A stretch of 64,000 bases of DNA from Bacillota bacterium. Lineage in GTDB: Bacteria; Bacillota; Clostridia; Christensenellales; JAEXRW01. Location of the stretch: NCBI GenBank assembly GCA_023454175.1, contig JAEXRW010000028.1, positions 2,200 through 66,199 on the forward strand, read 5' to 3'. Below are positions 1,522 through 59,772 of the stretch, one piece after another; position 1 is the first letter of the stretch; each line of letters starts with the position of its first letter. Both the position numbers and the translations under genes were made by a program. The notes below the pieces were generated by a model, which had not been told where the DNA came from, searched no databases, and saw nothing but the letters and a program-made list of their open reading frames with translations.

Positions 1522-2340
1522 ATGGACAACGAAAGCAGACTGATGGACAACGACAATAAACTGGCCGTATTGATAGACGCGGAGAACGTCTCCAGCAAAT
1601 ACCTCAAGGCGATCCTGGACGAGATATCCAAATACGGGATCCCCACGTACAAGCGCATCTACGGGGACTGGACGACGCCGCAGATGACGAGCTGGAAAAG
1701 CACGCTGCTGGAAAACGCCATCATCCCGATGCAGCAGTACAGCTATGTGAGCGGGAAGAACTCCACTGACTCGGCGCTGATCATCGACGCGATGGACATA
1801 TTGTACACGGGGAACGTGGACGGATTCTGCATCGTATCCAGCGACAGCGACTTCACGCGGCTGGCGACACGGCTGCGGGAAGCGGGGAGGCTCGTGATCG
1901 GATTCGGTGAGAAGAAGACGCCGTCATCCTTTATCTCCTCGTGCAATAAATTTGTCTATATCGAAGTGCTGCTGACGCCCGAGGAACCGGCGGCGCCCGT
2001 GAGCATCAACGGGGCCAAACCGGACACGGAGCACAAGGAAGGGACGGCGCTGGGGAGCACCAAGGGGGAGATCATGAATTCCCTGCGGTCCATCCTCAAC
2101 GACATATCGGACGACCAGGGATGGGCCCTGCTGAGCTCGGTGGGCTCCATCCTCAGCAAGCGGCACCCGGACTTCGACACGCGCAACTACAAGTGCAGGA
2201 ACCTGACGGAATTCGTGAAGAAGCTGGGGCAGTATGAGATCGACTCCCGGCCCACGAAGGACCCGAAGATACGGCATAACTACATACGGCTGAAACCGGT
2301 AACGACCAAACCTTTGGTGGCCAAGAAGGAAAAAGAGTAA
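1522..2340 (+). CDS. NYN (LabA-like) domain protein with C-terminal OST-HTH/LOTUS domain
   Basis: N-terminus KLAVLIDAENV...CIVSSDSDF is typical of NYN/LabA. C-terminus EIMNSLRSILND...GWALLSSVGSILSKRHPDFD...LTEFVKKLGQYEI is typical of OST-HTH. RBS GAAGAGGGG precedes the ATG. Confidence 0.7.
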   Translation: MDNESRLMDNDNKLAVLIDAENVSSKYLKAILDEISKYGIPTYKRIYGDWTTPQMTSWKSTLLENAIIPMQQYSYVSGKNSTDSALIIDAMDILYTGNVDGFCIVSSDSDFTRLATRLREAGRLVIGFGEKKTPSSFISSCNKFVYIEVLLTPEEPAAPVSINGAKPDTEHKEGTALGSTKGEIMNSLRSILNDISDDQGWALLSSVGSILSKRHPDFDTRNYKCRNLTEFVKKLGQYEIDSRPTKDPKIRHNYIRLKPVTTKPLVAKKEKE

Positions 2341-2466
2341 ATTAATAATTGAGAATTGAAAATTGAGAATTATCCTGCGATGAACTAGCCAAACCCCTCA
2401 GCCTCAAGCAAGCTTGAGGCAGCTCCCCTAATAGGGGCGCCATGCGACAGGCCCTGGGGAAAACAG
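2341..2466 (+). repeat. mosaic intergenic repeat element (heptads AATTGAG/AATTGAA, then hairpin, then CCATGCGAC module)
   Basis: Starts at the stop of the NYN gene: attaataattgagaattgaaaattgagaatt. Contains gcctcaagcaagcttgaggc and ggcgccatgcgacaggccctgggg, which are shared with 5495 and 32975. Confidence 0.6.
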
Positions 2467-2533
2467 TAAAGAATTAATAGTTGTGGAATTTGGGGAGGCG
2501 GGTGTGCCCTCCATTGAGTATGAATATTCATCA

Positions 2534-2583: not shown

Positions 2584-3714
2584 TCAATGGCTCTTGTCTG
2601 CCTCCACAGCCTGGATGAAGGCGGCGGGGTCAACGACGAAAGAGCCGGACTTGTTCACCGTACGGGTATCGTAAAGGAGGTCCAGGATCTTTTCATATGT
2701 TATCCCGGGATCCACCTGATAGGCCAAAGCGCACAGGCCGGCGGTATAGGCGATGGTCCAGCTGAAACCGCCTTCGTTCCAATACCTGCAGGCAGAACTG
2801 CTTTCGTTTTCCGCTGTAGTCCTGTAATCCCCCGGAACGATGACCACCGGGAAGGGCGCTTTTTTCGCTTCGGGATAGCGGTATATGTAGTTATCCGGAT
2901 CATCCTTATCCTTGTACGGCGGGCAGCCCCCTTCAAAGAACCTGTTGCCGAGGCTGTTGGAATAATTGACGTCAATGCCCGCGGCTTTGGCCCTGGCCAG
3001 TGCGGCGCTGAAGTGCTCCCAATCGGTACCCTGCTCCTGAAGACCGTCCGAGATAGAAAGAAGCCTGATTTTTTCCCCGGCAGGCAATGCCTGATTGAAC
3101 GCGATGAGGGCGTCCATGGCCGCGCAGTAATTCTCGATGTTCATCCCGTTATCCGGCACCGCGAAATAGTAGAGCTTCACGCCGGGTGCGACGCCGCAGG
3201 TATCCCCCGCGATGATGGAGGCGCAGGCCTGGCCGTGAAAATGCAGGGTCTCAAAACTGCCTGAGATATCCTTCACGGGCATATAGACCAGCCGTCCGCC
3301 GTATTCCATATGGGTGCTATCAATGGGCTTATCAAAGACCGCAACCGATACGCCCTGACCCGTGATGCCCTGCCGGTGAAGGTCCCGGACACCCAGGCCC
3401 GGATCCCTGCAGGCATCCAGCCAGCCGGACGGGGAAAAGGACGCAGGCAGCTTCGACACATCCGGCCAGACAGTGGCGTTATCATAGACGAGGCCGGAGA
3501 GCATCTCCAGGGACGCCTTCGAAAGATCCTTTGCGCTGAGATCCAGCCCCGAGACGCCCTGGTTTTTATCCAAAGGCCCGAGAACCTCCTGGCGCTCGGT
3601 TTCTACATCCACTTCCGGATTGACCAGTGTCACAACCAGGACGGCGGCGCCCGCCAGCGCCAGGACGATGATGCTGAGCATCAGAATAAGTTTCCATGGC
3701 TTTTTCCTTGTCAT
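2584..3714 (-). CDS. S8 (subtilisin-like) serine peptidase with N-terminal membrane anchor/signal
   Basis: Catalytic triad in D/H/S order: VAVFDKPID, HGQACASIIAG, and GFSWTIAYTAGLCAL aligning to GTSMAAPHVAGAAAL. Start chosen at MTRKKPWK, which has RBS GGAGGGAG and is followed by a hydrophobic helix. Confidence 0.7.
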   Translation of the reverse strand: MTRKKPWKLILMLSIIVLALAGAAVLVVTLVNPEVDVETERQEVLGPLDKNQGVSGLDLSAKDLSKASLEMLSGLVYDNATVWPDVSKLPASFSPSGWLDACRDPGLGVRDLHRQGITGQGVSVAVFDKPIDSTHMEYGGRLVYMPVKDISGSFETLHFHGQACASIIAGDTCGVAPGVKLYYFAVPDNGMNIENYCAAMDALIAFNQALPAGEKIRLLSISDGLQEQGTDWEHFSAALARAKAAGIDVNYSNSLGNRFFEGGCPPYKDKDDPDNYIYRYPEAKKAPFPVVIVPGDYRTTAENESSSACRYWNEGGFSWTIAYTAGLCALAYQVDPGITYEKILDLLYDTRTVNKSGSFVVDPAAFIQAVEADKSH

Positions 3715-4506: not shown

Positions 4507-5424
4507 GTGTGGACGGAACCGATAGCACCGATGGAACCGCTGGTACGGGAGGAGCCATTTGACTCCCCACTGCACCTTTTCCAGGTGAAATGGGACGGGG
4601 TGCGGGTACTGGCGTATGCAACGGGCGAGGGGATCCGCCTGATCAACCGGCGGCTGAACGAGCGGACAGAGCAGTACCCCGAGATCACCGCGGCGCTTTC
4701 ATCATTACCCGCAGGGACTGTCATAGACGGAGAAGTGATCGCATTGGGGGCGGACGGGAAGCCGAGTTTCCCGCAGGTGATGAGGCGGGACCAGCTGCGT
4801 TCAAAAAACAAAACGGCCGGCGCGGCCGCCAGCCTGCCGGTGCATTACATGGCGTTTGACATGTTATGGCACGGCGGGAAAGATATCATGCACGAGCCAT
4901 TGACGGTGCGGCAGAAGATATTACAGGACAGCATTCAACCAAACATCACCGTGCAGCTGGTGGACAGCATCGAAACGGAAGGCATCGCGCTTTTCCGCGC
5001 CGTGGAGGCTGAGGGAATGGAGGGGGTGGTGGCGAAGGTGAAGGACAGCCGCTACCTGCCGGGGCGCAAGACGGAGCTGTGGCAGAAGATGAAATGCTGG
5101 CGGGAGATCACGGTATGGGTGTGCGGATGGGAATACGAGGGGCCGCGCATCCGCTCACTGCTCGTTGGCGCGGAGGAGGACGGGGAGATGCGCTTTGCGG
5201 GGAACGTGAGCAGCGGTATCACGCAGAAGCAGTGGAGCGCATTGAAAGAATATCTGGAGGGAGTCAATCCACCGGAACAGGAGTGCCCGTTCGGCGGAGT
5301 AAAGAAAATGCCAAACGTACGGTGGGCGAGGCCGGAGATACGGATCAGGACACGTTATCTGGAGTGGACGGAGGATTTGAAACTGAGAAATCCCAGTGTT
5401 ATGCAATTGATAATTGATAATTGA
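4507..5424 (+). CDS. ligD: ATP-dependent DNA ligase (LigD ligase-domain-like, NHEJ)
   Basis: QVKWDGVRV contains the KxDG adenylation motif I, and the overall nucleotidyltransferase/OB layout fits. Start is uncertain among GTG 4507, ATG 4531 and TTG 4483. The last six codons and the stop are encoded by the heptad repeat element. Confidence 0.75.
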   Translation: MWTEPIAPMEPLVREEPFDSPLHLFQVKWDGVRVLAYATGEGIRLINRRLNERTEQYPEITAALSSLPAGTVIDGEVIALGADGKPSFPQVMRRDQLRSKNKTAGAAASLPVHYMAFDMLWHGGKDIMHEPLTVRQKILQDSIQPNITVQLVDSIETEGIALFRAVEAEGMEGVVAKVKDSRYLPGRKTELWQKMKCWREITVWVCGWEYEGPRIRSLLVGAEEDGEMRFAGNVSSGITQKQWSALKEYLEGVNPPEQECPFGGVKKMPNVRWARPEIRIRTRYLEWTEDLKLRNPSVMQLIIDN

Positions 5425-5601
5425 TAATTGAGAATTGCGGAATGCCTGCGGCATGATCCTATTACCCTGCGAGGGGGCTCTCTCCCTCAGTCGCCATGCG
5501 ACCCCATTGTGCCGCAAGCGGCCCATTTGTCGCTTGGACGACAGCCCCTCTCGCAAACGCGCGCAACGCGCGGCAGAGGGAGCTTAGTGACCCCGCAGGG
5601 G
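5404..5601 (+). repeat. mosaic intergenic repeat element (AATTGAT heptads x4, TTGCGGAATGCCTGCGGCATGATCC hairpin, CCATGCGACCCC module, nested palindrome CCCTCT-cgcaa-ACGCGCG-caa-CGCGCG-gca-GAGGG)
   Basis: Direct reading. The heptads encode the last residues and the stop of the ligase gene. Downstream modules recur at 18350-18460 and 60690-60775. Confidence 0.7.
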
Positions 5602-5767
5602 TATTCTTCAGCCAAGCGATCCTCTTGGCCGTAACAGGATACCGCCCATTGACAGCTATACAGGTAACTATCAAACTAAAAATGTGTTGGGATAAAGAAA
5701 AAGGGTATTTGTTAATTGAAAATAATAGGTTATAAACGTTAACTTCTTCTTGAAGGGAGGGTGAAGC

Positions 5768-6649
5768 ATGAACGCCAACACCATCACGATCGAGGGGAAA
5801 GAGGTATGCATCACGAGGCCGGAGAAAATGCTTTTCCCGGCCATCGGGGCGAGCAAGAGCGACCTGATCGAGTATTATATCCGGATGGCGCGGTACATCC
5901 TGCCGTGGCTGCACAACCGGCCTTTCTCGATGGAATCCTTCCCGGATGGCGTTGAGGGCAAACACTTTTACCAGAAGCAGCGGCCGGAAGACGCGCCGGA
6001 GTGGCTGGAAGGAATCACACTGCCCTCGGAGAAGCGGGGGCACCTGGACTGGTGCTTTGTGAACGACACAGCGAGCCTGGTTTATATGGCGAACCGGGCG
6101 AATATCCAGACACACGCGTGGTTCTCCCGTGCGCCGAGGCTGGACGAGCCCGACATCGCGGTATTTGACCTGGACCCTTCCGGGAACACGGGGTATGCCG
6201 ACGCGGTGGAGGCGGCGCGGCTGATCAAGATCATCCTCGATGAGATGAAGGTGACGGCTTTTCCCAAGACTTCGGGCGCGACGGGCGTGCATATCGTGAT
6301 CCCCATCGAACCGACGCCCTTTGAGAAGGTGCGGGAGTACCTGGGGAAGGTGTGCAGGATGGTGGAGAAGGCGCACCCGGACCGCTTCACCACCGAACGG
6401 ACCATCAGCAAACGTGGGGACAAGGTGTACCTGGACGCGGTACAGAATGCCCGGGCCAAGACGATCCCCTCGCCCTACAGCGTGCGGGCCACGGCGACCG
6501 CCACGGTATCCACACCCGTGACGTGGGACGAGCTGCTCATCCAGGGGGTACGGCCCGAGATGTTCACCATTCGTAATATCGAGGAGCGGGTGAAGCGGAT
6601 CGGCGACCTTTTCGCGCCGGTGTACCAGATGAGGCAAAAAATCAGTTGA
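5768..6649 (+). CDS. NHEJ polymerase/primase domain protein (LigD Pol-domain-like)
   Basis: AVFDLDPSG and KTSGATGVHIVIP are typical of the archaeo-eukaryotic primase-like LigD polymerase domain. RBS AAGGGAGGG is present. The stop TGA lies inside the first AGTTGAG heptad. Confidence 0.75.
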   Translation: MNANTITIEGKEVCITRPEKMLFPAIGASKSDLIEYYIRMARYILPWLHNRPFSMESFPDGVEGKHFYQKQRPEDAPEWLEGITLPSEKRGHLDWCFVNDTASLVYMANRANIQTHAWFSRAPRLDEPDIAVFDLDPSGNTGYADAVEAARLIKIILDEMKVTAFPKTSGATGVHIVIPIEPTPFEKVREYLGKVCRMVEKAHPDRFTTERTISKRGDKVYLDAVQNARAKTIPSPYSVRATATATVSTPVTWDELLIQGVRPEMFTIRNIEERVKRIGDLFAPVYQMRQKIS

Positions 6650-6757
6650 GAGTTGAAAGTTGAGAGTTGAGAGTTGCGGTATGCAAAGGGATCACTCCTT
6701 CAGCCTCCTTCGTCGGCAGCTCCCTCATCTGAGGGAGCCAAGATGGCTCTGTACTAG
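6644..6757 (+). repeat. mosaic intergenic repeat element (AGTTGAG heptads x4, then TTGCGGTATGC)
   Basis: agttgagagttgaaagttgagagttgagagttgcggtatgc. The first heptad contains the stop of the LigD-pol gene. Followed by cctcatctgagggag hairpin. Confidence 0.7.
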
Positions 6758-6818
6758 TTCATTCATATTCTAATATCCGAAGATTCGTGATGTACAGTTA
6801 GAATATATAACAAATACA

Positions 6819-7874: not shown

Positions 7875-8459
7875 ATGGACAAACAGGAACTGGAGGCATG
7901 CCTTTCGACGCTGGACAGGGGCGATTTCATCGAGCGGAAATACAGGGAATATGCCGTCATCGACGCGCCGCTGCGAATCGGACACGGGCAGACCATCTCG
8001 CAGCCGAGCCTGGTAAAGTACATGACGGAGCTGCTGAACCCCGAAAAGGATTCACGGGTACTGGAGGTGGGGACGGGGAGCGGATACCAGACGGCCATCC
8101 TAGCCTGCCTGTGCGATGCGGTCTACACCATCGAACGGATCGAGGAACTTTCCAAAACCGCGGAGAAGCGGCTGGCCGATATGGGATACCGCAATATCCA
8201 TTTCTTCATACGGGACGGGAGCAAGGGACTGGCGGAACACGCGCCCTATGACCGGATCATGGTGACGGCGGCGGGGGGGAGCATCCCGAAGGAATTGCTG
8301 GAGCAACTGAAGCCGGGCGGGAGGATGGTGATACCGGCGGGGCCGCGGGAGGTGCAGGACCTGTACCTCGTGACGAAGGACGGGGATGGGAGCATCCACA
8401 GGGAAGTCGTGGAGAAGGTACGCTTTGTGGAGCTGAAGGGAGAATACGGATTTAATTAA
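7875..8459 (+). CDS. pcm: protein-L-isoaspartate O-methyltransferase
   Basis: GHGQTISQPSLVKYM, VLEVGTGSGYQTA (SAM motif I) and RIMVTAAGGSIPKEL. RBS GGGAGGG before ATG 7875. The longer listed ORF 7269..8459 is a read-through extension antisense to aadK. Confidence 0.8.
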   Translation: MDKQELEACLSTLDRGDFIERKYREYAVIDAPLRIGHGQTISQPSLVKYMTELLNPEKDSRVLEVGTGSGYQTAILACLCDAVYTIERIEELSKTAEKRLADMGYRNIHFFIRDGSKGLAEHAPYDRIMVTAAGGSIPKELLEQLKPGGRMVIPAGPREVQDLYLVTKDGDGSIHREVVEKVRFVELKGEYGFN

Positions 8460-8575
8460 TAATTAATAGTTAATAATGAAGAATTTTGGTGAGCCCTTCG
8501 GGGGTGAATGCAATTGCCTTTCCGGGGCTAACTAGTTGACAGTTAATAGTTTCGGAATGCCGGGGGACAAGGGTT
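8453..8575 (+). repeat. mosaic intergenic repeat element (TAATTAA/TAGTTAA heptads, GAGCCCTTCGGGGG hairpin, second heptad block, then TTTCGGAATGCCGGGGG)
   Basis: Begins at the pcm stop codon. Confidence 0.65.
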
Positions 8576-8723
8576 ACCTTCCATTGAGCGAGCATAAAAA
8601 CTGAGGGGATTTCCCATCATGTATCACCGTTTAATGCCCGTTACCTTATGATTCTGATATAATGTGAATAAGTCTTTATTATCCATATCTGCATTTACAG
8701 GGGAACCAAGCAAGGAGACCATC

Positions 8724-11845: not shown

Positions 11846-12214
11846 AGTCCCTCGGGATTAAAATCCCTTGGAGCTAAAGCTCCTTTGGAGTTTAACGACT
11901 TTGGGACAATAGGATCGGTTGGTTTGAACGAGGACAGACACTAAAACGAGATTCACCATGCGGCAGGGGGGAGCGGAAAACCGCTCCTTTCCATTGGGTC
12001 AAACGCGCTTCTCAGTCCGAACTGCAAATGCCAAAAAACCGGATAAATGGGCTGCGAGGAATGTAAAACACTGCGGAATGCCCTGACGGGCATTAATGTT
12101 GGTCCCAACCATGCAAAGAATCAATACTCCCTGATTGAAGAATGACTGCAACACATATATAATCAATATATACCTCCATTACCACACTGTGTTAATCACA
12201 GCCTGATTGAGGAA

Positions 12215-18132: not shown

Positions 18133-18480
18133 CTTTCCAGGGGGGACAGCGTGCGCTAGTGCGCCCGCGGGCAGTCCCCCCTAGATACCTCGTTGCACCC
18201 TGCGGGTGCGGCCACTCGGATACCCCCCTGCCTATAAGGTATGCCTCGCACCGCACATGTCGCTGCTCGGCATGGAATTTATAGTTGGAATTTGACAGTT
18301 GCGGTAAGTGATAAATTTACAAGTAGGAAGATCACTCTTTCCGGCGCAAAGCGACCCCATAGACCCCATAGGGCAGCTAGCGGCCCATTTACGGTTCATT
18401 TTGGGCCACATTGCGCCACTCTCCCCATAAGCGCGCGGCGCCCGAGGGAGGCAAGATGGTCCTACGGGGATGAAGCAGTC
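18131..18480 (+). repeat. composite mosaic repeat region (GC palindromes, heptad block tatagttggaatttgacagttgcggtaag, GCGACCCCAT...AGCGGCCCATTT...AAGCGCGCGGCGCCCGAGGGAGG module)
   Basis: Module order and sequence parallel 5495-5600. Confidence 0.55.
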
Positions 18481-19507: not shown

Positions 19508-19682
19508 TGATATTCACAATACATATTTACTGAGAAAAACAAGAGAAGCAGGAAATAATTGATAGAGTACATTCAAATATGATAAAATATCATTTATAGA
19601 CGATACGCGTCATTCAATACCTGGCAGGGCCGGACATCATTGCTATAACATCATGCCAAACAAAACATTCCGGAGGTCTATC

Positions 19683-22600
19683 ATGCGAAAAACGATACTT
19701 GCCGCGGCTATTTCGTTTTTCATGGTGTTCAGTTTATTGCCTGCGATCGCTTTGGCCGAAGAGGAAGGCGGATATGCCTATACCGTTTCGGATGAAAAGG
19801 CAACGATAACGGGGTATACGGGGTCCGATACGAACATCTCCATACCCGTGCAACTGGGCGGATATGCTGTGACCCAATTAGGGGACGAATCCTTTCAAGA
19901 TAAAACCACATTGAAGAGCATCACCCTGCCTGACGGCATCACCAACGTGGGCAGCCATGCCTTCAGCAACTGCAGCCAGCTCAGCAAACTCTACTTCTTC
20001 GGCGAGCAGCCTGCGTTTGGAGAAGAAGCATTTTCAGGCGTTTCATCCGATTTCAAAGTCTATTATCCTATCAGCAAATCAGAAAACTGGTCGACCTATA
20101 CCGCCTCATCCAAGCAGGCATTCTGCAGCCTCACCCTGAAAATGCTGGATGGCAGCGATGACATCATCAGCAAGGCGAACGTGGACGGCGGCTCCATCCC
20201 CGATCCCGAAGAACCTGAGAGGGATGGATACACCTTCGGAGGGTGGTATTTGGACGAGGGATGCAATACGCAGTGGACCAATGAAAACATCCAATCAGAC
20301 GTCATCCTCTATGCAAAATGGGTCCCCCAGGCCACCACGGTAACCGTAACATTCAATTCAATGGGCGGAAGCGAAGTGGATGTGGCGACCGCCGAATCGG
20401 GCTCCACCATAACCAAACCTTCAAAGCCTATAAACCCCGGGTTCAGTTTCGGAGGCTGGTACCGGGAAGAGGCATGCAGCACCGAATGGGCGTTTGACAC
20501 GGATACCGTCACTGAGAATATCACGCTCTACGCCAAATGGACAAGCAACGGCACACCCTTTACCGGGAGCGGAACAGAGGAAGATCCGTATGGCATATCA
20601 ACCCCGGAACAACTCAATGCAGTACGAGATCACCTGGATGGACATTTCATCCTGCTCAACGATATAGACCTATATGCGGCAACAGCGCCAGGCGGAGAAT
20701 TTTATAACAGCGGAAAAGGATGGACACCAATCGGAGACAACCTGACTCCCTTTACCGGTTTTTTTAACGGTGGCGGATTTGTTATCAAAAACATGCATAT
20801 CAGCAACCCGGCCATACTTTATATCGGGTTGTTTGGGAGAAATAGCGGCACGATCACGAGGTTAGGAACGCAGAATTGTGAGATTACAGCAAATGATGCA
20901 GGAGATGCAGAAATCTTTATCGGAAGCATTGCAGGTTCCAATTACGGTACGATCCGTGAGTGTTACAATACCGGGCACATCCTGGTATCATCTTATTTTG
21001 CAAAGGTAGGCGGTATAGCCGGAGGGTATGGAACGATAGAAAAATGCTTCAATACCGGCACAATATCTGCAAACGGATACTATGCATACGTGGGAGGTAT
21101 TGCAGGTTTCGCTGGGACAATCAAAGAGTGTTATAACACGGGGAGCATCACCTTCGGCAGCGAAGAAACACTCGATACTTTCGGCGCAATAGCTGGCAGC
21201 GGCAGTACAAAAGTCAGCAACTGCTATTTTTCCAATTTTGGTTTTAGAGGGGTTGCAGAAAACTATGGTGGTTCACAGACATTCAGGAAGTCTGCTTTAG
21301 AAATGACCCGGATGTCCACTTTTACCGCCTTTGACTTTGAAAATACATGGATCATGTCTTCGGATACTGACTTCCCATGCCCTATTCTTAAAGGCGTTCA
21401 TTTCTTTGCAGGTAATGAAAACACCTCGGAGTTTTCAGGTGGCGTTGGTACCATTTACAATCCATATAAGGTTGGCACACCTGATCAACTCAATAATGTG
21501 CGACATTACCTGGGTGCACACTTTGTCATGACAAACAATATTGACCTACTGGATGCTACTTCCGAAGGCGGCGAATATTACAACGACGGCGCAGGATGGA
21601 TACCGATCGGCGGGGACTATCAGGATGCTTTTTGTGGCAGTTTCGATGGCGGCGGTCATACCATTAACGGGCTAAGATGCGTCTATGCAACGACTGAGAC
21701 CAATTCGGCGCTGTTTGCAAGAAACGACGGTGAAATAACAAATCTCGGTTTGAACAATATTTATATACAAACCAGGGGTAGAGCTGCAGGGGTAGCTGCA
21801 AAAAACAGCGGGATAATCAGTCATTGCTTCGTCGGCGGTGAAATCAGCGGCGAGTACGAATGCGGGGGCATCTCTGCAGCTTCAGACGGGAAAATCACCT
21901 CCTGTTACAATACATCGACTGTTACAGCCCAAAATGTCTCTTCTTCGATCGGCGGTATCGTTGGGTACATGCGGGATAATGGAGAAGCGGGATATTGCTA
22001 TAATACCGGAAACATCCGAAATCTGATGAACAGCGGCTTGGATTCTGCGGGTGGAATCGCAGGAACAGGGTTGTACAGTGACAACACCGCGATCCATGAC
22101 TGCTTTAATATGGGAGCTGTATCCGTAGCTTATGATCAGGATTCAGCGGGAGGCATCGCTGGTGAATACATCGATGACATCAAACACTGCTATAATATCG
22201 GGAGCGTATCAGGAAGCGACTGCTCTGCCGCTATCGTATACAGTGCACCGAGCACCATAACGGATACCTATTTCCTGGACACCGGCGAACCTGGGCTGAT
22301 CGGCGCGACGGATGGCTACGACAGGGAGCTATCCAATAAAAAAACGCATATTGAGATGACACAGCGGACGACGTTCACGGCATTTGATTTTGATAACATA
22401 TGGGAAATGCCTGTTACCGGGTGCTACCTGTATCCAGTATTAAAAGGTTTGCCGCACGATCCCCTCCAAGGTGAAACCCAAAAGTTCGATGGTGGTCTGG
22501 GGACAATAGCAAGCCCATTCATCATCGCCACTCCTGAACACCTGAACAATGTCCGACTTTATGACCATAAATACTTTATTCTGGCCAATGATATCGACAT

Positions 22601-25600
22601 GTCATCTGCCACATCTGAAGGCGGTGCGTACTACAATAATGGGGCCGGATGGGAGCCCATCGGCTTTTCATCTTCGTTAAATATTCATTTTGACGGCGGT
22701 GGACATTCCATTTCAGGTCTTAAAATTAACCGTCCGGAACAAAGTAACATCGGGTTGTTTGGCCGAATTACGTCTTCTTCCATCAAAAACCTAAAAATGC
22801 TTGACGTCGATGTCACCAGTGCCTATATCTGCGGCGGGATCGCAGGATCGTGCAGCGGAGAAATCAAAAACTGCAGTGTATCAGGATCGATCACGGGAAC
22901 CAAAACGCAGACGAATTACGGCGTAGGCGGGATCGCTGGTATCATGTATTCCGGGGATATATCTTTTTGCACGAATACCGCAAAAATTTCTTCCTATGTC
23001 AAAGCGGGAGGTATCGTGGGGGATACCGAAGGCAATATATCCTATTGCTCCAATCACGGAGCCATAACAGGCCTGGGCACCACGGTCATAGGCGGTATAG
23101 CCGGAGAAACCCACGGAAGAATCCGCGATTGCTACAATACTGCAGACCTGTTTCAAACAAATCCCGACGAAGATTCAGGCGGCATTGCAGGCTGGCATTA
23201 TTACAGCGGCTATACATATACAAATTGCTATAATATCGGCCATGCAACGTATGGAATCACTGCATGCAACTGGACGAATATAACCCTATGGTCACATTGT
23301 TATTACCTGGAGGGGATGTGTGAAAAAGAAGGGAATTATGGTGATCCAAAAAGTGCAACTGCTTTACAAAGTCAATCGTCCTATGAAGGATATGATTTCG
23401 CAAATGTCTGGACTATGGCCGGTGAAACCACCTATCCTTTTGCCGAATTGCAGAACATTATACAACCAACTGTAAAGGTTCAAGGAACATTAGATCTGAG
23501 TGATTTCGGGGACAATTCCACAATCACTGTTGGAACGGTAGAAACCGGATCCAATGTGATACTGACAAATAACACTGGGGCCACGTTCAACAATGTACGA
23601 ATTGTATGCCTAGCCGGAACAACCATCACCTTAAACAATGTGAAAATTTATAACAGGGCGGGCTCGCCATATTGCTGTGCCTTGTCATTCTCCGGCACCG
23701 GCAATGAACTGATCGTGCAAGGCGAATGTTCCCTACAAAGCGGAAGCGACAGCCCGGGAATAAAAGTACAGGCAGGGACCTCCCTGGAAATACAAGGCAC
23801 CGGAACACTCGATGTCAGCGGCTGCTCAGGGATCGGTGCCTATGGCAACTACTCAGCGGGGAATATCACGATCCATAGTGGAACGATCATTGCTTTAGGA
23901 CGATGGGATGGTGCAGGCATCGGCGGTGGAGAAAATGGCTCAGGCGGCACAATAACGATAACCGGCGGCATCGTGTCTGCCAGAAGCAACGCAGATGGTG
24001 CGGGGATCGGCGGCGGCGACGGTGGTGACGGCGGGATCATCAATATCGAAGGTGGGCAGGTAACGGCACAGGGATCCTGGGCTGCAGGTATCGGTGGCGG
24101 TTATGGCGGGGATGGAGGGAGTATCACCATTTCCGGTGGAACAGTAAACGCGATAGGCTCCATGTATTCGGCAGGTATTGGCGGTGGATATGGTGGCAAT
24201 GGTGGGACTATCGTAATCAATGATGGTACGATTTATGCAGCAAGAGGCACTGATGCACCGTGTGATATCGGCTATGGAAATTTTAGAGGAACAGGATCCC
24301 TGGAAATATCGGGCAATGCTATCGTATTCCTGAAAAACGGGGTATGCGTCACACCTATAAACAATACGCACACGCTCCTGTCCACCCAAACCATCGTTAA
24401 TCATAAAGCGTTCGGACTTGAAATACCTTATCCCTGGACTACCCCGGTATATGCATACCTAAACAACGATGACGTATTTACGGCCAGATATAATATAAAT
24501 GGCGGAACAGGGAATAATCCTGAATCTATAACGCAATACAAAAACACGAAAACAATTATCCAAAGCGGGGATAAGCTAACCAAGAACAGGCTGCATTTCC
24601 TATACTGGAATACGCTGCCGGACGGTACAGGCGAGCGATATAATGCCGGCGACGAGTATACCTTTACTGCAAACATAACGCTATATGCGATATATGAGAA
24701 GCCAATTAGTGTCTCTTCAGTAACGATAAGCGGCAACAACGAGCCAATACTCTGCGGAACCTATCGGGCGCTGTGGGCAACAGTCGTACCCTCAAACGCA
24801 ACGTATCCGGAAATAACCTGGTCCAGCAGTGACAAATCAGTGGCTACCGTAGATCAGAATGGCATCGTTGAAGCCATCCAAACAGGCAAAGCATTTATAT
24901 CGGCGGCTGTGGACGGCATTACCGGTTCATGCGAAGTGACTGTGTACAGATATTTTACCGTACAGTTTGATTCACGGAGCGGAAGCATATACGATGATCA
25001 ATTCGTAAAACCAAATTCAACCATTACCAAACCGTCAGATCCCTACAAAGAAGGCCATTCATTTGAAGGGTGGTATAGGGACAATGCCTATCGCTCAAAA
25101 TGGAATTTCGAAAAGGATCCAGTATCTACAGATATGATTCTATATGCAAAGTGGACTGTCAACTCTTATAGCGTAAACTTCAACACACAAAACGGGGGTA
25201 AGATCGACAGCAAAATCACGAATTACAATACAACTATCACCAAGCCCGTAATTGATCCTCAAAAACAAGAATTTACCTTTGCAGGCTGGTACAAGGAGAA
25301 GGAATGCGTAAACATATGGAATTTCAATACCGACAAGGTGACATGCGATACAACGCTTTACGCCAAATGGCAGCCTGTGAGCGCCTATCTCTCGGGGCTC
25401 AAGTTAACACAGGGAGCAAGCATCACCCCCGCATTCTACAAAGCGAAGTACAGCTACAAAGTTCTGCTGAATGAGAACACCGGGCGCGTAACGCTGACGC
25501 CAACCAAGGAGAACAAAACGGCAACCATGACGCTGAACGGCGCGGGCGGATCCAGCCTGACGGTGGAACTGAAGAACGGCCAGACGGTAACGCGCAAGAT

Positions 25601-26240
25601 ACGGGTATACTGTGCGAGTACAACAAGAACCTATACCTTCACCATCACAAGGGAGAAATCCTCGAACAACTACCTATCCGGGCTGACGGCCAAAGGCGCG
25701 GGCATCACACCCGTATTCAGCAAGTACCAGACGGAGTACAGGGTGGAGCTGCCGGAGGGGACAGATAAAACGACGATCTACGCAACCGCCGAACGCGCGG
25801 ATGTGGCGAAGGTGTATTATTCGGTCAGGTCCTATACATTGAAAAACGGCGAGACAAGAAACATCACGATCAAGGTGCGTTCCCAGAAGGGGGTGTACCG
25901 GTACTACCATGTGACGATCCACCGCGCGAAATCCACCAACACAAACCTCGCCTCGCTGTACACGAATTCATCGAGGTGCAGGCTGTCGGCGCCGTTCAAC
26001 GCAAACATTACGGATTACACCATGACAATGCCGGCCAACCAGAGCTCCGTATCCATCTACTCAAAGGCGGCAGACCGGTTATCCAAGGTGAGCGCGAAGG
26101 TGACGATCAACGGCGTCACCAGGGCCACCAACCGGGTGAGCCTGGCCAAAGGGCAAAGCGCCGTCGTAGAGATCACCGTGACAGCCCAGTCCAAGGATAC
26201 AAAGGTCTACCGTATCACGATCACAAGAGCGACGGTATAA
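19683..26240 (+). CDS. giant multidomain cell-surface protein
   Basis: Signal peptide and RBS GGAGG. In order: BspA-type leucine-rich repeats; Listeria-Bacteroides (InlB B-repeat-like) domains (GYTFGGWY...LYAKW, several copies); about 8 GLUG-type repeats (GGIAG..G.I..CYNTG); a Gly-rich GAGIGGG.GG.GG.I.I.GG region; a Big_2 domain; four cadherin-like C-terminal repeats. Confidence 0.8.
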   Translation: MRKTILAAAISFFMVFSLLPAIALAEEEGGYAYTVSDEKATITGYTGSDTNISIPVQLGGYAVTQLGDESFQDKTTLKSITLPDGITNVGSHAFSNCSQLSKLYFFGEQPAFGEEAFSGVSSDFKVYYPISKSENWSTYTASSKQAFCSLTLKMLDGSDDIISKANVDGGSIPDPEEPERDGYTFGGWYLDEGCNTQWTNENIQSDVILYAKWVPQATTVTVTFNSMGGSEVDVATAESGSTITKPSKPINPGFSFGGWYREEACSTEWAFDTDTVTENITLYAKWTSNGTPFTGSGTEEDPYGISTPEQLNAVRDHLDGHFILLNDIDLYAATAPGGEFYNSGKGWTPIGDNLTPFTGFFNGGGFVIKNMHISNPAILYIGLFGRNSGTITRLGTQNCEITANDAGDAEIFIGSIAGSNYGTIRECYNTGHILVSSYFAKVGGIAGGYGTIEKCFNTGTISANGYYAYVGGIAGFAGTIKECYNTGSITFGSEETLDTFGAIAGSGSTKVSNCYFSNFGFRGVAENYGGSQTFRKSALEMTRMSTFTAFDFENTWIMSSDTDFPCPILKGVHFFAGNENTSEFSGGVGTIYNPYKVGTPDQLNNVRHYLGAHFVMTNNIDLLDATSEGGEYYNDGAGWIPIGGDYQDAFCGSFDGGGHTINGLRCVYATTETNSALFARNDGEITNLGLNNIYIQTRGRAAGVAAKNSGIISHCFVGGEISGEYECGGISAASDGKITSCYNTSTVTAQNVSSSIGGIVGYMRDNGEAGYCYNTGNIRNLMNSGLDSAGGIAGTGLYSDNTAIHDCFNMGAVSVAYDQDSAGGIAGEYIDDIKHCYNIGSVSGSDCSAAIVYSAPSTITDTYFLDTGEPGLIGATDGYDRELSNKKTHIEMTQRTTFTAFDFDNIWEMPVTGCYLYPVLKGLPHDPLQGETQKFDGGLGTIASPFIIATPEHLNNVRLYDHKYFILANDIDMSSATSEGGAYYNNGAGWEPIGFSSSLNIHFDGGGHSISGLKINRPEQSNIGLFGRITSSSIKNLKMLDVDVTSAYICGGIAGSCSGEIKNCSVSGSITGTKTQTNYGVGGIAGIMYSGDISFCTNTAKISSYVKAGGIVGDTEGNISYCSNHGAITGLGTTVIGGIAGETHGRIRDCYNTADLFQTNPDEDSGGIAGWHYYSGYTYTNCYNIGHATYGITACNWTNITLWSHCYYLEGMCEKEGNYGDPKSATALQSQSSYEGYDFANVWTMAGETTYPFAELQNIIQPTVKVQGTLDLSDFGDNSTITVGTVETGSNVILTNNTGATFNNVRIVCLAGTTITLNNVKIYNRAGSPYCCALSFSGTGNELIVQGECSLQSGSDSPGIKVQAGTSLEIQGTGTLDVSGCSGIGAYGNYSAGNITIHSGTIIALGRWDGAGIGGGENGSGGTITITGGIVSARSNADGAGIGGGDGGDGGIINIEGGQVTAQGSWAAGIGGGYGGDGGSITISGGTVNAIGSMYSAGIGGGYGGNGGTIVINDGTIYAARGTDAPCDIGYGNFRGTGSLEISGNAIVFLKNGVCVTPINNTHTLLSTQTIVNHKAFGLEIPYPWTTPVYAYLNNDDVFTARYNINGGTGNNPESITQYKNTKTIIQSGDKLTKNRLHFLYWNTLPDGTGERYNAGDEYTFTANITLYAIYEKPISVSSVTISGNNEPILCGTYRALWATVVPSNATYPEITWSSSDKSVATVDQNGIVEAIQTGKAFISAAVDGITGSCEVTVYRYFTVQFDSRSGSIYDDQFVKPNSTITKPSDPYKEGHSFEGWYRDNAYRSKWNFEKDPVSTDMILYAKWTVNSYSVNFNTQNGGKIDSKITNYNTTITKPVIDPQKQEFTFAGWYKEKECVNIWNFNTDKVTCDTTLYAKWQPVSAYLSGLKLTQGASITPAFYKAKYSYKVLLNENTGRVTLTPTKENKTATMTLNGAGGSSLTVELKNGQTVTRKIRVYCASTTRTYTFTITREKSSNNYLSGLTAKGAGITPVFSKYQTEYRVELPEGTDKTTIYATAERADVAKVYYSVRSYTLKNGETRNITIKVRSQKGVYRYYHVTIHRAKSTNTNLASLYTNSSRCRLSAPFNANITDYTMTMPANQSSVSIYSKAADRLSKVSAKVTINGVTRATNRVSLAKGQSAVVEITVTAQSKDTKVYRITITRATV

Positions 26241-31246: not shown

Positions 31247-32755
31247 ATGGAAGGCGGAATCATCGCTCTGATCGTGACAGGCTCGGTCATCCTATTCATC
31301 CTTTTTATCATGTTCCTCTCGCGGTACAAGAAGTGCCCATCGGACAGGATCATGGTGGTGTACGGCAACGTGGGGCGGACGAAGGACGGCTCCCAAAGGA
31401 GCGCCAAGTGCATCCACGGCGGCGCGGCCTTCGTGTGGCCCATCGTGCAAAGCTACCGGTTCCTCTCCCTGACGCCGATCTCCATCGAAGTGCTGCTGCG
31501 CAGCGCGCTGAGCAAGCAGAACATCCGCATCGACGTGCCTTCACGCTTCACGGTGGGTATCTCCACCGAGCCGGGCATCATGCAGAACGCTGCGGAACGG
31601 CTGCTGGGACTGGCGCTGCCCGATATCCAGGAGCTGGCCAAGGACATCATCTTCGGCCAGCTGCGTTTGGTCGTAGCGACGATGGACATCGAAGAGATCA
31701 ACACCGACAGGGACAAGTTCCTGGCGGCGGTATCCAACAACGTTGAAACAGAACTCAACAAAATCGGCCTGAGGCTCATCAACGTGAACGTGACGGACAT
31801 CAACGACGAATCGGGCTATATCGAGGCGCTGGGCAAGGAAGCGGCGGCCAAGGCCATCAACGACGCGAAACGGACCGTAGCGGAGAAGGACAAGGAAGGC
31901 GCCATCGGCCAGGCCAACGCCAACAGGGACCAGCGCATCGAGGTCTCGGCGGCGAACTCCCGCGCCATCGAAGGGGAAAACACCGCCAAGATCACCATCG
32001 CAAACTCGGACTCGGAACGGCGCGAGAAGGAGGCCGAAGCCCTGCGGCGCGCTACCGCGGCGGAGAAGGTGCAGACGGCCATGGCGCTGAAGGAATCCTA
32101 CGCGGCAGAAGAACAAGCCGAATTGCAGCGTGCGGCACGCGAAAAGGCGACGCGGGAAGCCGACATCATCATCCAGGCCGAGATCGAAAAGCGCAGGATC
32201 GAGATCTCCGCGGAAGCCGAGGCGGAACAGCTGCGGCGGAAGGCGCGCGGCGAGGCGGATGCCATCTTTGCACAGATGGAGGCAAGGGCACGCGGCATCA
32301 AGGAAGTGCTGAACAAGCAGGCCGAGGGCTTCGAGGGGATCATCCATGCGGCGGGCGGAAACGCGGACGACGCGGTGCACATGATGATCGCGGACAAGCT
32401 GGAAGCGCTGGTGGAAAAACAGGTCGAGGCTATCAAAAATATCAAGATCGACAAGATCACGGTGTGGGAGAACGGGCAGAACAAGGACGGGCAGACGTCC
32501 ACGGCTTCGTTCCTCTCGGGGCTGCTGAAATCCATCCCGCCGATGAACGAGATGTTTGACATGGCGGGGATGACGCTGCCGACATACCTGGGGGAATCCA
32601 AGGACAAGGCAAAGGCGGCGGACACAAAGAGCGTCAAAATCGAAGCCGAGGCGACGGTGAAGGACGCGGAACCCGAAGAGAAGGATCCGGAGCCGGACCA
32701 CCCGGCCAAGAAGAGGCTCGTGGACCCGCCCAAAGACAAAGGCGACTGGAGATAG
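31247..32755 (+). CDS. floT: flotillin (SPFH domain) protein
   Basis: N-terminal TM, SPFH domain, and long Ala/Glu-rich flotillin repeat region. About 500 aa like FloT. NfeD-flotillin operon arrangement. Strong terminator downstream. Confidence 0.7.
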   Translation: MEGGIIALIVTGSVILFILFIMFLSRYKKCPSDRIMVVYGNVGRTKDGSQRSAKCIHGGAAFVWPIVQSYRFLSLTPISIEVLLRSALSKQNIRIDVPSRFTVGISTEPGIMQNAAERLLGLALPDIQELAKDIIFGQLRLVVATMDIEEINTDRDKFLAAVSNNVETELNKIGLRLINVNVTDINDESGYIEALGKEAAAKAINDAKRTVAEKDKEGAIGQANANRDQRIEVSAANSRAIEGENTAKITIANSDSERREKEAEALRRATAAEKVQTAMALKESYAAEEQAELQRAAREKATREADIIIQAEIEKRRIEISAEAEAEQLRRKARGEADAIFAQMEARARGIKEVLNKQAEGFEGIIHAAGGNADDAVHMMIADKLEALVEKQVEAIKNIKIDKITVWENGQNKDGQTSTASFLSGLLKSIPPMNEMFDMAGMTLPTYLGESKDKAKAADTKSVKIEAEATVKDAEPEEKDPEPDHPAKKRLVDPPKDKGDWR

Positions 32756-32798: not shown

Positions 32799-33015
32799 AG
32801 TTGACAGTTGACAGCTAACAGTTAACAATAGCGGAATGCATAGGGAGCATACGACCCTTACGGGTTGATTGGGGTTGCCTCCCATTGGGGCATGAATTTG
32901 CAATCCTGTGGGAGTAAACCCCACAGCCGTCGTTTCGCTACGCTCACTACGGCAGCTCACCCTACAGTGGATGCGATGCACCCACTTGGGGAGCCATGCG
33001 ACGGGTCCTGGGGCG
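32799..33015 (+). repeat. mosaic intergenic repeat element (AGTTGAC/AGCTAAC heptads, then AATAGCGGAATGC, GGCAGCTCACCCTA module, GGGGAGCCATGCGACGGGTCCTGGGG module)
   Basis: Follows the flotillin terminator. Modules are shared with 58600, 52296 and 2435. Confidence 0.65.
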
Positions 33016-33318
33016 GAATAACTGGTAATTCAGATAAAGGTATAACCGGAACCAGAAGAATACATACTGGCTACACACACGGGTGAAAGCGCTCTATGCG
33101 ATGGAGAAACACCTCATCCGGCACCATGGATTCCAATTGGAGCAATTGGAATCACTATGGCGCCACCTTCCCCTCAAAGGGGAAGGCTTTGAGAGTCCGA
33201 TTTCAGGTTAAAGTTGAGAACTGCGGTGAGACCGGTGGCTGTTTCCTGATACGATGGAGGAGGCGCACTGCTGTAAAAACCCCACCCAGGCCTTTACAGC
33301 AGTGCGGCAGGGGAAATA

Positions 33319-41702: not shown

Positions 41703-41760
41703 GACGACAACACCCCCAAGAAATGTAGTACAGTATATGATACGAGTACGGGAGGTGTTT

Positions 41761-59708: not shown

Positions 59709-59772
59709 AATTTCATAAAGAACACTGGATTAACACCAGTGTTTCCTATATTAATAACACCGGTATTCTACC

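Follow-up and report, generated by a model that had tools for sequence, protein, structure and literature searches.

A one-way family of mosaic intergenic repeats that often begins at stop codons in a Clostridia genome

The 64-kb stretch of DNA analysed here (the window) carries a dense, previously undescribed family of mosaic intergenic repeats, which resembles the REP/BIME elements of E. coli without fitting that family. Each block consists of a run of heptads (ARTTRAN) followed by an imperfect palindrome of approximately 30 nt; blocks recur in series, interspersed with other GC-rich palindromic modules, they share one orientation, and the heptads frequently begin at the stop codons of + strand genes. 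Our tentative interpretation is that the repeats form a lineage-specific, REP/BIME- or IS200/IS605-PATE-like family of Oscillospiraceae-type Clostridia, and that a strand-specific DNA process may have spread them.

Results

A dense repeat family with a single orientation

A first-pass annotation had proposed a dense, mosaic, intergenic family with a single orientation, and had flagged positions 5404-5601 as one copy. The flagged stretch was as described, from AATTGAT x3 and AATTGAG through to the GC-rich palindromes of E2 (Table 1), and the family was recovered on the + strand only. Tandem Repeats Finder identified 12 period-7 arrays in the window, all on the + strand and built of ARTTRAN or AATKTAC heptads; the period is strictly 7 bp and copy number ranges from 2.6 to 6.6, whilst the heptad sequences vary widely (AATTGAG, AGTTGAC, AATTAAG and AATGTAC). 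An nhmmer profile of the ~30-nt unit gave 15 matches (E<2) in the 64 kb, essentially all in non-coding DNA, with none on the - strand. By blastn, the 14 regions of the first-pass annotation matched the window exclusively in +/+ orientation. Over ~75 kb of the same contig, 16 direct and two inverted module pairs were detected between intergenic regions (blastn); of the inverted pairs, one is a palindrome matching itself and the other an unrelated inverted repeat outside the window.

The pattern TTGCGGWATGC, allowing up to one mismatch, matched the window 13 times, compared with 3.3 +/- 1.7 times in shuffled sequences, and 0/100 shuffles reached 13. The unit profile found no match with E<0.4 in control loci, which comprised ~290 kb of TerL-related phage contigs and the loci of LigD relatives (nhmmer). 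Copies within the window were 72-100% similar over short blocks by blastn, with no long identical copy, an observation that counts against our preferred interpretation.

Of the copies originally listed, 51190 is doubtful (a GGAATGC match alone), 41761 comprises only heptads and 12066 is a solitary hairpin unit. Additional copies had been overlooked within the window (2474-2520, 33108-33194, 42180-42210 and 60792-60844), and others lie to its left (-2080 and -890 to -750). The first-pass annotation had named a lack of further copies as grounds for its refutation; such copies exist. It had suggested one copy per 4-5 kb; density is about one per 5 kb but uneven, as the 8 kb past the window end held no period-7 array (TRF) and no shared module (blastn).

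GC skew and AT skew are positive throughout the + strand of the window, which encodes 28 of the 45 genes. Elements downstream of minus-strand genes keep the + orientation, namely -2080 (EamA), 41764 and 42180 (portal gene) and 52250 (rubrerythrin). All copies lie on the positive-skew strand, a relationship to replication in which about four copies are informative and the direction of replication is deduced from the skew.

Table 1. Repeat elements and related features, in window coordinates
Feature	Position	Strand	Composition and context
Period-7 array starts	2347, 5405, 6644, 8453, 32799, 41764, 58422, 58511, 58733, 59608, 60523, 62379	+	Tandem Repeats Finder
E1	2340-2520	+	Heptads from TAA stop of NYN/OST-HTH gene (1522-2340); hairpin 2401-2420; GGCAGCTC, CCATGCGAC, then second short heptad plus unit-like stretch
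E2 (flagged copy)	5405-5605	+	Four heptads forming last 6 codons and stop of DNA ligase (4507-5424); AATTGCGGAATGCC-TGC-GGCAT, CCATGCGAC, GACCCCAT, nested palindrome CCCTCT..CGCGCG-CAA-CGCGCG..AGAGGG
E3	6644-6760	+	Five heptads, the first with TGA stop of LigD primase-polymerase (5768-6649); then GCGGTATGC and GGCAGCTC hairpin module
E4	8453-8600	+	Heptads with TAA stop of PCMT gene (7875-8459); CCC-TTCG-GGG unit; second heptads; GGAATGC plus long insert
Solitary unit	12066-12098	+	CACTGCGGAATGCCC-TGAC-GGGCATTAATG, without heptads; 220 nt past DUF2680 gene
E6	18133-18420	+	Directly after TGA stop of DUF6320 gene; GC-rich palindrome, CTCGGATACCCCCCTGCCTATAAGGTATGCC, long-loop unit, heptads, GACCCCAT
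E7	32799-33200	+	Heptads from last base of perfect 17-bp intrinsic terminator 3' of flotillin gene (31247-32755); long-insert unit, GGCAGCTC, CCATGCGAC, module 33108-33194 common to position -827
Heptads alone	41764-41781	+	AATTGAG x2.6, between two minus-strand genes
Module fragment	42180-42210	+	GGGGAGCCATGC, 77% identical to 32969-32999; 3' end of minus-strand portal gene
Doubtful copy	51181-51205	+	Just TTTCGGAATGC; missed by unit profile
E10	52255-52400	+	GC-rich modules alone; between minus-strand MarR and rubrerythrin genes
E11 (largest composite)	58422-58770	+	Heptads with TGA stop of Ku (57613-58434); repeated [heptads + hairpin unit] blocks, GC-rich modules
E12	59608-59747	+	Starts 8 nt past His_Phos stop; heptads, two CCC-TNCG-GGG units, two more small hairpins
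E13	60523-60845	+	Divergent intergenic region upstream of TerL; AATGTAC/AATTTAC heptads (no stops), unit, GC-rich modules
E14	62379-62445	+	AATGTAC heptads 5 nt past TerL stop; then GGCGGAATGC...GCATGGATT with 26-nt insert

Anatomy of the unit and its modules

The unit is 27-35 nt long, with the consensus ARTTG-NGGWA, a GC stem of 5-7 bp, a TNC loop and TGRATT. Its palindrome comprises lower AATT/AATT arms, an asymmetric NGGW bulge, the GC stem and the loop, which accepts long inserts and ranges from 3 nt to >50 nt on a fixed stem. Pairing in the stem is preserved through paired changes (ATGCC/GGCAT, ATGCCC/GGGCAT, ATGGCC/GGCCAT and ATCGC/GCGAT). For the GGCAGCTC stem, inspection by eye revealed T.G on the + strand in three of five copies, and a single C-G pair changed to T-A. 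MAFFT alignments of the units, and of a filled and an empty site, were not consistent with structure or indels, so pairs were counted and boundaries placed manually. The heptads resemble copies of the first 7 nt of the unit. The order of parts, with heptads leading, had been proposed as a rule; it is loosely true and not strict. The copies at 18131 and 52250 open with GC-rich modules.

As DNA, the small hairpins have low stability (-2 to -7 kcal/mol) and, taken singly, most fold no better than shuffled sequences. Folding of the CCC-TNCG-GGG units is poor in DNA form and improves in RNA form, a hint that they act at the RNA level instead; all five keep a UNCG-type loop with a free N. No consistent asymmetry was observed between the folded RNAs of the + and - strands.

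Modules recur between elements: the GCAGCTC hairpin of E10 is 90% identical to 58600-58647, and E13 carries a second copy of the nested palindrome. The repeats also distort gene calls. The second heptad plus unit of E13 (60792-60844) overlaps the annotated TTG start of TerL, and the predicted 34-aa ORF at 62380-62484 is likely to be an artefact. TerL, TerS and portal genes are present in the window, with the phage head genes scattered; no tRNA or tmRNA was found in it.

Stop codons and gene ends

The start of seven out of ten independent arrays falls within -20 to +8 nt of the stop of a + gene (p ~7e-6). The statement of the first-pass annotation that copies are + whatever the strand of the flanking gene holds for the few minus-strand cases, but masks the strongest pattern, the placement of most copies at the 3' ends of + genes. 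Element-bearing intergenic regions lie downstream of a + gene in 11 of 14 cases, and each of the 15 units reads in the sense direction of an adjacent + gene.

Eight of the ten arrays supply stops in three frames. In sequence, the leading heptads close the upstream reading frame in any frame, and they would be expected to act accordingly. Heptads encode the DNA ligase tail (MQLIIDN, then stop), and the LigD primase-polymerase is two to three residues shorter than the proteins of relatives. No conserved flank was found outside the heptads, and the sequences 5' of the arrays share nothing.

E1 and E12 sit between a stop and an intrinsic terminator, which places them inside the 3' UTR; a bidirectional terminator (2539-2562) comes after E1. 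Real terminators in the window adjoin elements and do not lie inside them, although one unit of the metagenome-assembled genome (MAG) L013 does carry a T run. The possibility that the elements are themselves intrinsic terminators was rejected: terminator-like sites in 1-20 kb were no commoner than in shuffles and did not coincide with units. Nor was a promoter role for TTGACA-type heptads retained, as no consistent -10 element occurs at the right spacing.

Insertion and turnover in relatives

The ligase and primase-polymerase genes overlap in relatives at ~65% protein identity, with no element between them, and E2 is part of a 343-bp spacer separating the same two genes in the window. The element is an insertion relative to these distant relatives. 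Closer comparison comes from an ~80%-identical relative, which keeps heptads at the Ku and primase-polymerase stops in elements of different length and modules. A 135-nt version of E11 occupies the Ku stop, and the primase-polymerase site has three heptads plus an intact unit in relative L059, compared with five heptads in the window. The 140-nt E12 is absent from the orthologous His_Phos site of the ~80%-identical relative (L094); at this one locus, aligned by hand, the filled and empty sites revealed no terminal inverted repeat and no clear target duplication. Module CTCGGATACCCCCCTGCCTATAAGGTATGCC is identical at 31/31 positions at non-orthologous loci of two lineages, whose genes are ~80-84% identical.

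Genes have been gained or lost immediately 3' of elements, with ANT present in the window only and a 127-aa gene in the relative only, and these extra genes lie on the opposite strand. Elements have been gained, lost and remodelled between close relatives. In another sample, short-read contigs have ends that fall within elements or immediately past them. An organism of 36% GC, which carries no elements, encodes the nearest flotillin homologue, at 80% identity.

Occurrence elsewhere

The family had not been recognised as a named one, and database searches agree. Rfam gave 0 matches at gathering thresholds and four chance-level matches at E<=5, none in an element; a phage collection gave no match; and literature searches by literal sequence and keyword returned just primers or unrelated papers. 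Matches in plasmids were to an unrelated (TAGTTGA)n microsatellite of E. coli IncF plasmids. Exact-pattern scans gave 16 matches in GTDB genomes, 32 in JGI metagenomes and 2 in IMG/VR, mostly at chance level; among these matches, real copies were confined to L008, L013 and L049. L020 and L025 hold palindromes that may be related, and L015 is ambiguous.

The heptad-plus-hairpin core (the GCGGWATGCC hairpin) occurs in other Clostridia MAGs from several genera of differing GC content, often as inverted unit pairs (L008, L013 and L049). In L013, where copies adjoin parAB, serS and mscL, both arms of palindromic elements give sense heptads directly after the serS and parA stops. L008 carries a tandemly repeated 15-nt version of the unit start. 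The proteins adjoining the L008 and L013 elements include no transposase, and no transposase, RAYT, HUH, TnpA/TnpB or recombinase gene was found in ~75 kb of the contig.

Because the 290 kb of TerL-related viral contigs contained neither a heptad array nor a unit, phage regulatory repeats of the promoter or stoperator type were dropped as an explanation. CRISPR, a DNA uptake sequence (TGCGGT resembles the Haemophilus USS core), Chi (AGCGG), the CodY box and the Spo0A box were set aside, as they fit only a few bases each.

Discussion

REP, BIME and REPIN elements are similar to the family in being ~30-nt GC-rich imperfect palindromes, extragenic, arranged in mosaic clusters with variable linkers and placed at 3' ends near stops. 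REPs and BIMEs are also lineage-specific and lack terminal inverted repeats and target duplications, and the units (27-35 nt; 15 in 64 kb) fall within the definition of a REP as a multi-copy, extragenic, GC-rich palindrome of 20-40 nt. Inverted unit pairs like the REPINs of Pseudomonas occur in MAGs L013, L008 and L049 only. The differences are equally clear. The REP 5' tetranucleotide GT[AG]G is absent, the conserved 5' flank being ARTTG-NGGWA with its NGGW bulge; BIMEs alternate REP orientation, whereas the window units are all direct; REPs lack the tandem heptads that precede the units here; and no RAYT (Y1 transposase, PF01797) gene is present in ~75 kb. The host is a Firmicute, whereas REP/RAYT systems have, to our knowledge, been described mainly in Proteobacteria. 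Neisseria NIME and Correia arrays share the mosaic of short intergenic modules, the high density and the association with rearrangement or insertion hotspots, but no recurring 20-bp dRS3 inverted repeats flank the window modules, which have a single orientation, and the 26-bp inverted terminal repeats and TA duplication of Correia elements are missing. The likeness to BIMEs and NIMEs drawn by the first-pass annotation is therefore fair for appearance, but does not extend to REP orientation, the GTAG-type tetranucleotide or dRS3 flanks.

Neither REPs with RAYT enzymes nor IS200/IS605-derived PATEs have terminal inverted repeats or make target duplications, and both enter one strand relative to the replication fork. 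The family shares with IS200/IS605 ends and PATEs the bulged imperfect hairpins, the absence of inverted terminal repeats and (at one locus) of target duplication, and the one-strand polarity. IS200/IS605 targets are 4-5 nt long, such as TTGAT (ISDra2) and TTAC (IS608), and the heptads end in TTGAT, TTGAG, TTGAC or TTTAC, which may represent such a target. PATEs insert 3' of a fixed tetra- or pentanucleotide; the heptads carry TTRAN, whereas the 5' flanks of the arrays have nothing in common. Unlike IS200/IS605 elements, the repeats have no definable left and right ends and carry tandem heptads, and no TnpA/TnpB gene lies in ~75 kb. We know of no tandem heptads produced by IS200/IS605 or RAYT chemistry. 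Classical MITEs, mobilized by DDE transposases, differ in that window copies have no inverted ends and the E12 indel no duplication, although inverted ends might be seen in the palindromic copies of L013 and L025. The STAR element of Staphylococcus aureus is a Firmicute intergenic repeat of short GC-rich direct repeats with recurring spacers; its sequence is unrelated, it is not known to have heptad arrays, and neither abutment to stop codons nor uniform orientation has been reported for it.

Our proposal is that each block is a non-autonomous DNA element and that a strand-specific process acting on folded single-stranded DNA moves or copies it in trans. Strand-specific entry would give a uniform orientation on the G-/purine-rich (leading-type) strand. 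If the heptad motif TTRAN were the preferred landing site, the stops of + genes (T-TGA, T-TAA) would be harmless targets; existing elements would attract new insertions and so become mosaics, and heptad number would then drift through slippage. Hairpins in or just after the 3' UTR could protect or insulate transcripts, as REPs do. We regard as unlikely the bolder proposal that the blocks are sites of an undescribed strand-specific recombination or transposition system for single-stranded DNA in Oscillospiraceae (HUH-type or integron-like), bringing its own three-frame-stop 'landing pad', homing to stops, attracting itself and creating hotspots for accessory genes.

Selection at the RNA level is a plausible competitor, though on balance it would surprise us. 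The blocks would be cis elements retained at gene 3' ends for transcript function, their orientation following the transcribed strand, with the heptads as single-stranded AU-rich sites for an endoribonuclease or a multimeric RNA-binding protein of 7-nt period and the GC hairpins with UNCG-type loops as 3' stabilizers or translational insulators. HutP reads UAG-N4 repeats, and E. coli REPs near stop codons act as 3' stabilizers or translational insulators. Such selection is consistent with the 11/14 regions downstream of + genes, the 7/10 arrays abutting stops, the 15/15 sense units, the 3' UTR location of E1 and E12, the five CCC-TNCG-GGG units with their RNA-favouring loops, the sense heptads that both L013 arms place after serS and parA, and the heptads that survive ~20% divergence at the Ku and primase-polymerase stops. 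However, elements beside minus-strand genes only (-2080, 41764, 42180 and 52250) are antisense to them, E7 follows a perfect terminator, the two strands fold as RNA without consistent asymmetry, no Rfam family matches, and wholesale remodelling at orthologous sites is unlike constrained RNA. Retention would be accounted for, but not the origin of the copies. That origin might involve no dedicated mobility at all: heptads could be ordinary microsatellites that slippage creates and expands where gene ends are AT-rich, the GC-rich palindromes could be remnants of old terminators or REP-like sequences, homogenized between intergenic regions by gene conversion, and the one-way orientation could be a product of strand bias in genes and slippage. 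We consider this improbable, because slippage cannot account for the 15:0 strand bias of a 30-nt unit, and because several genera of differing GC content share this core of heptads plus GCGGWATGCC hairpin, relatives differ by the clean presence or absence of a 140-nt block, a 343-bp element-bearing spacer stands where relatives' genes overlap, and a 31-nt module is identical at non-orthologous loci against a gene identity of ~80-84%. In its favour are the change from five to three heptads at the same site, the likeness of heptads to the first 7 nt of the unit, the tandem 15-nt version in L008, the divergence of the copies and the failure to find an enzyme gene in ~75 kb.

The bulged hairpins also recall integron attC sites, with an R-box-like lower stem, an unpaired spacer, an L-box-like upper stem and a variable terminal structure, and as folded single-strand recombination sites in direct orientation they would permit excision and reinsertion of neighbouring genes and so a shuffling of accessory genes. 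A single orientation over tens of kb, sites at ORF 3' ends overlapping stops, loops of 3 nt to >50 nt on a fixed stem, the gain and loss of ANT and the 127-aa gene immediately 3' of elements, and an accessory gene content (toxin-like, nucleotidyltransferase, acyltransferases, regulators) with scattered phage head genes all fit this scheme. It is nevertheless very unlikely: the attC core sites R''/R' (RYYYAAC/GTTRRRY) are absent and ARTTRAN heptads fit neither, units of 27-35 nt are far shorter than any attC, runs of at least four genes lack a site, the stretch includes genes as large as 2195 and 1792 aa, the extra genes are encoded on the other strand, and no tyrosine recombinase or integrase occurs in 75 kb. 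We know of no report of integrons in Firmicutes. Still more improbable, in our estimation, is that the arrays are DNA iterons, that is, cooperative sites for a small DNA-binding protein or oriented guide motifs for a DNA translocase. In inc18 plasmids, 7-bp WATCACW arrays bind the ribbon-helix-helix protein omega, and in HUH-Rep origins direct repeats adjoin a hairpin. The strict 7-bp period, 2.6-6.6 copies and one orientation would suit iterons, and the heptads next to a hairpin may be analogous to HUH-Rep origins; yet neither operators, centromeres nor origins show such a density, with approximately one array per 5 kb at gene ends, the heptad sequence is highly variable, skewed guide motifs (KOPS, SRS) also occur outside intergenic DNA, and no candidate protein was identified.

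REP-like repeats, known mostly from Proteobacteria, influence how stable mRNAs are, how translation terminates and how genomes rearrange. A dense one-way family in gut or rumen Clostridia would provide a new model for the spread of such repeats and for their tolerance by the host, with members that start at stop codons, would close a reading frame whatever its phase and flag where genes are gained and lost. In practical terms, short-read contigs of another sample have ends within or immediately past the elements, gene calls are distorted by them, and the unit profile could serve as a lineage marker. If the blocks were indeed sites of a dedicated single-stranded DNA system, they would represent cassette-like genome plasticity in Firmicutes.

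A mosaic repeat family of uniform polarity

The intergenic DNA of the window carries a lineage-restricted, fast-evolving family of mosaic repeats of uniform polarity. When the sequence at 5404-5601 was re-read, its anatomy agreed exactly with the first-pass annotation: three AATTGAT heptads and one AATTGAG, then AATTGCGGAATGCC-TGC-GGCAT, then GC-rich palindromes, the last of them CCCTCT..CGCGCG-CAA-CGCGCG..AGAGGG. Tandem Repeats Finder defined 12 period-7 arrays in the window, all of one polarity. The motif TTGCGGWATGC (≤1 mismatch) had 13 matches in the window compared with 3.3 ± 1.7 in shuffled sequences, and blastn of the 14 regions listed in that annotation against the whole window returned solely +/+ matches. 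With flanking sequence of the same contig added (2.2 kb on the left, 8.4 kb on the right), intergenic regions gave 16 direct and 2 inverted module pairs, the inverted pairs being one self-palindrome and one inverted repeat outside the family. The arrays, the blastn matches and the direct pairs confirm the earlier claim of a real mosaic family in a single orientation. The inverted repeat outside the heptad family lies beyond the window end, flanked by genes for an LRR_5 surface protein and a SleB-type hydrolase; its arms of ~50 nt are spaced 150 nt apart.

From the aligned copies we derived a recurring block of ARTTRAN heptads followed by a bulged-hairpin unit, ARTTG-NGGWA-stem-TNC-stem'-TGRATT. 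The stem occurs as ATGCC/GGCAT, ATGCCC/GGGCAT, ATGGCC/GGCCAT, ATCGC/GCGAT or a weaker CCC/GGG with a TNCG loop, and inserts of 23-50 nt can take the place of the loop with the stem unchanged. Judged by sequence, each heptad resembles a copy of the seven bases that open the unit; a tandem 15-nt version of the same unit start was found in another genome (L008, a Clostridiales MAG locus). An nhmmer profile built from 14 units gave 15 matches on the + strand, untrained copies among them, and none on the - strand at E<2; in ~290 kb of TerL-related phage contigs and LigD-relative loci, used as controls, there was none at E<0.4. Interspersed among the units are at least eight further palindromic modules rich in GC; examples are GGCAGCTC-hairpin-GCC, CCATGCGAC, GACCCCAT and the nested CGCGCG palindrome. 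The building blocks do recur as first described, though their order differs between some copies. The larger composites fold better than shuffled sequences (z about -3.3 to -3.9), near-equally on both strands, and single units fold no better than shuffles.

Positions of repeat elements and other features (window numbering; negative values lie left of the window on the same contig, and L060 is DNA beyond its right end)
Feature	Position	Strand	Remark
Period-7 arrays (starts)	2347, 5405, 6644, 8453, 32799, 41764, 58422, 58511, 58733, 59608, 60523, 62379	+	Tandem Repeats Finder
AATGTAC-type arrays	60523-60554, 62379-62396	+	ATG, not stop, in all three frames
Untrained profile match (example)	60817-60844	+	nhmmer
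Elements adjoining minus-strand genes only	-2080, 41764, 42180, 52250	+
Element after His_Phos	59608-59747		140 nt
Inverted repeat unrelated to the heptad family	~67381-67430 and 67580-67629		in L060
NHEJ genes	4507-6649, 57613-58434
Phage genes	42264-43814 (-), 56889-57425 (-), 60808-62373 (+); L060 18991-21275
TerL	60808-62373	+	annotated TTG start at 60808; in-frame ATG at 60844 / 60862
34-aa ORF	62380-62484		within an element
Coding-like sequence, no called gene	41525-42060	-	surrounds heptads at 41764
Tandem repeat	53827-53935		GGACCAGGACGAGGGCC-type
44-nt stretches	36724-36767, 49688-49731		82% identical
Giant surface-protein genes	19653-26240, 54214-56856		share internal repeat families D2, D6

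Association with stop codons

Gene calls from contig look-ups and Pfam scans describe the window as a bacterial accessory region, with 28 genes on the + strand, 17 on the - strand and no transposase or recombinase gene; GC skew and AT skew are positive throughout. The elements are tightly associated with the stop codons of + genes, and their leading heptads end the upstream frame. Of the 14 intergenic regions with an element, 11 follow the 3' end of a + gene and a single one is a divergent promoter region. In seven of the 10 independent arrays the start falls between -20 and +8 nt from a + gene stop (binomial p about 7e-6), and five of these seven enclose the stop codon. Whatever the frame, a stop is met in 8/10 arrays; the two AATGTAC-type arrays have ATG in every frame instead. 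The ligase C-terminus (...LRNPSV-MQLIIDN*) takes its final residues from the heptads where relatives carry on with unrelated tails, and the primase-polymerase falls 2-3 residues short of the length seen in relatives. Elements that adjoin minus-strand genes only keep the + orientation, and the earlier claim of one orientation whatever the gene strand is therefore upheld, on about four cases.

The annotated TerL start lies inside a unit, and either downstream ATG is more plausible; the 34-aa ORF is probably spurious. The minus-strand coding-like sequence beside DUF2935 may be a gene that has decayed or undergone a frameshift.

Comparison with relatives

A close relative (DNA identity about 80-84%; samples SRR29758288 and SRR29758290) has heptads at the primase-polymerase stop, as does the window (three versus five). 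In the relative an intact unit comes next and PCMT directly adjoins it, whereas the window has an additional minus-strand nucleotidyltransferase gene in between. Upstream of its primase-polymerase the relative has a different module set, which includes a module identical (31/31) to that at 18215 in the window. Heptads also mark the Ku stop in both, leading into a composite of 135 nt in the relative and 350 nt in the window; a 127-aa minus-strand gene follows in the relative but not in the window. After His_Phos, the window has an element and the relative has none, with homologous flanks on both sides; at this one locus, with boundaries read by hand, the filled and empty sites showed neither inverted ends nor a target duplication. 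The blocks are therefore of long standing at certain gene ends, come or go whole at others, and are quickly remodelled; they also coincide with gene gains and losses.

In the relative's locus L094, the sequence after the His_Phos terminator (2989-3059) is 89% identical to window 53263-53334 and not to the window's own post-His_Phos sequence, implying either that the DNA has been rearranged or that a ~6.5 kb segment (collagen-like, Glug, TerS, Ku, His_Phos) is arranged in tandem or as a circle. The nearby tandem repeat, collagen-like if coding, differs by 36 nt in copy number from ENA contig NODE_168.

In three genomes with ~65% protein identity, ligase and primase-polymerase overlap, Ku is adjacent, and the locus carries no element; the 343-bp spacer of the window is therefore derived. 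The NHEJ genes, contiguous in these relatives, are dispersed in the window: the spacer, with its repeat element, splits ligase from primase-polymerase, and Ku lies 51 kb away beside the small terminase.

The heptads and a GCGGWATGCC-hairpin core also occur in L008, L013 and L049, loci of other Clostridia MAGs. In L008 the core stands after the flotillin orthologue (67% identity) and forms a palindrome whose arms measure ~150 nt; L013 (Oscillospiraceae) has inverted pairs between serS/mscL and between parA/parB, with heptads straight after a stop on both arms. Palindromes in two JGI contigs (AATTGCGGAATGCGGATT...) are possibly related. The family was absent from TerL-related phages and from the collections of phage and plasmid sequences searched; the Rfam search proposed by the first-pass annotation matched no family, and literature searches by sequence and keywords found no description of it.

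Other features of the accessory region

Phage genes (portal, small and large terminase, major capsid, SU10-type adaptor) are dispersed over ~30 kb on both strands, interspersed with surface protein, Ku, phosphatase and regulator genes, and look like a broken-up prophage or domesticated set. The 44-nt stretches, each containing a small hairpin (AGTCYGCA-AGC-TGCGGACT), lie upstream of two + genes, for a cellulase-type giant and a Sel1 protein, and may be a common leader or operator. The window also encodes a 1792-aa protein whose four CBM_X2 domains point to a host that degrades fibre.

Possible origin of the repeats

The origin that we rank highest, tentatively and at somewhat less than even chance, is one like that of REP/BIME or IS200/IS605-PATE elements. 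A strand-specific process acting on single-stranded DNA would copy these non-autonomous palindromic elements, which have neither inverted ends nor target duplications, in trans, and this would explain their single polarity on the leading-type strand. Were the heptad TTRAN motif the preferred landing site, + gene stops (T-TGA or T-TAA) would be harmless targets and minus-gene stops would not. Existing elements would attract new insertions into themselves, producing mosaics. However, no enzyme gene was found in the 75 kb covered, the copies have diverged from one another, their hairpins are weak, and tandem heptads are, to our knowledge, no known product of REP or IS200/IS605 chemistry. Unlike REP, the elements lack the signature tetranucleotide and, unlike the alternating BIMEs, all point one way. 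The BIME/NIME likeness first proposed is a reasonable analogy rather than membership.

The stop-codon position and UNCG-type loops would also suit an RNA-level role in 3' UTRs, which we consider rather unlikely given the antisense copies and the one copy behind a perfect terminator. A DNA-level origin and an RNA-level effect are not mutually exclusive. Slippage with gene conversion, without mobility, is less probable again; cassette-type recombination sites, as in integron attC, are very unlikely, and protein-binding iterons are the least credible. Structured intergenic mosaic repeats are an already familiar class; what stands out in this family is its heptad leader with a 'three-frame stop', its strict polarity and its connection with genes gained and lost.
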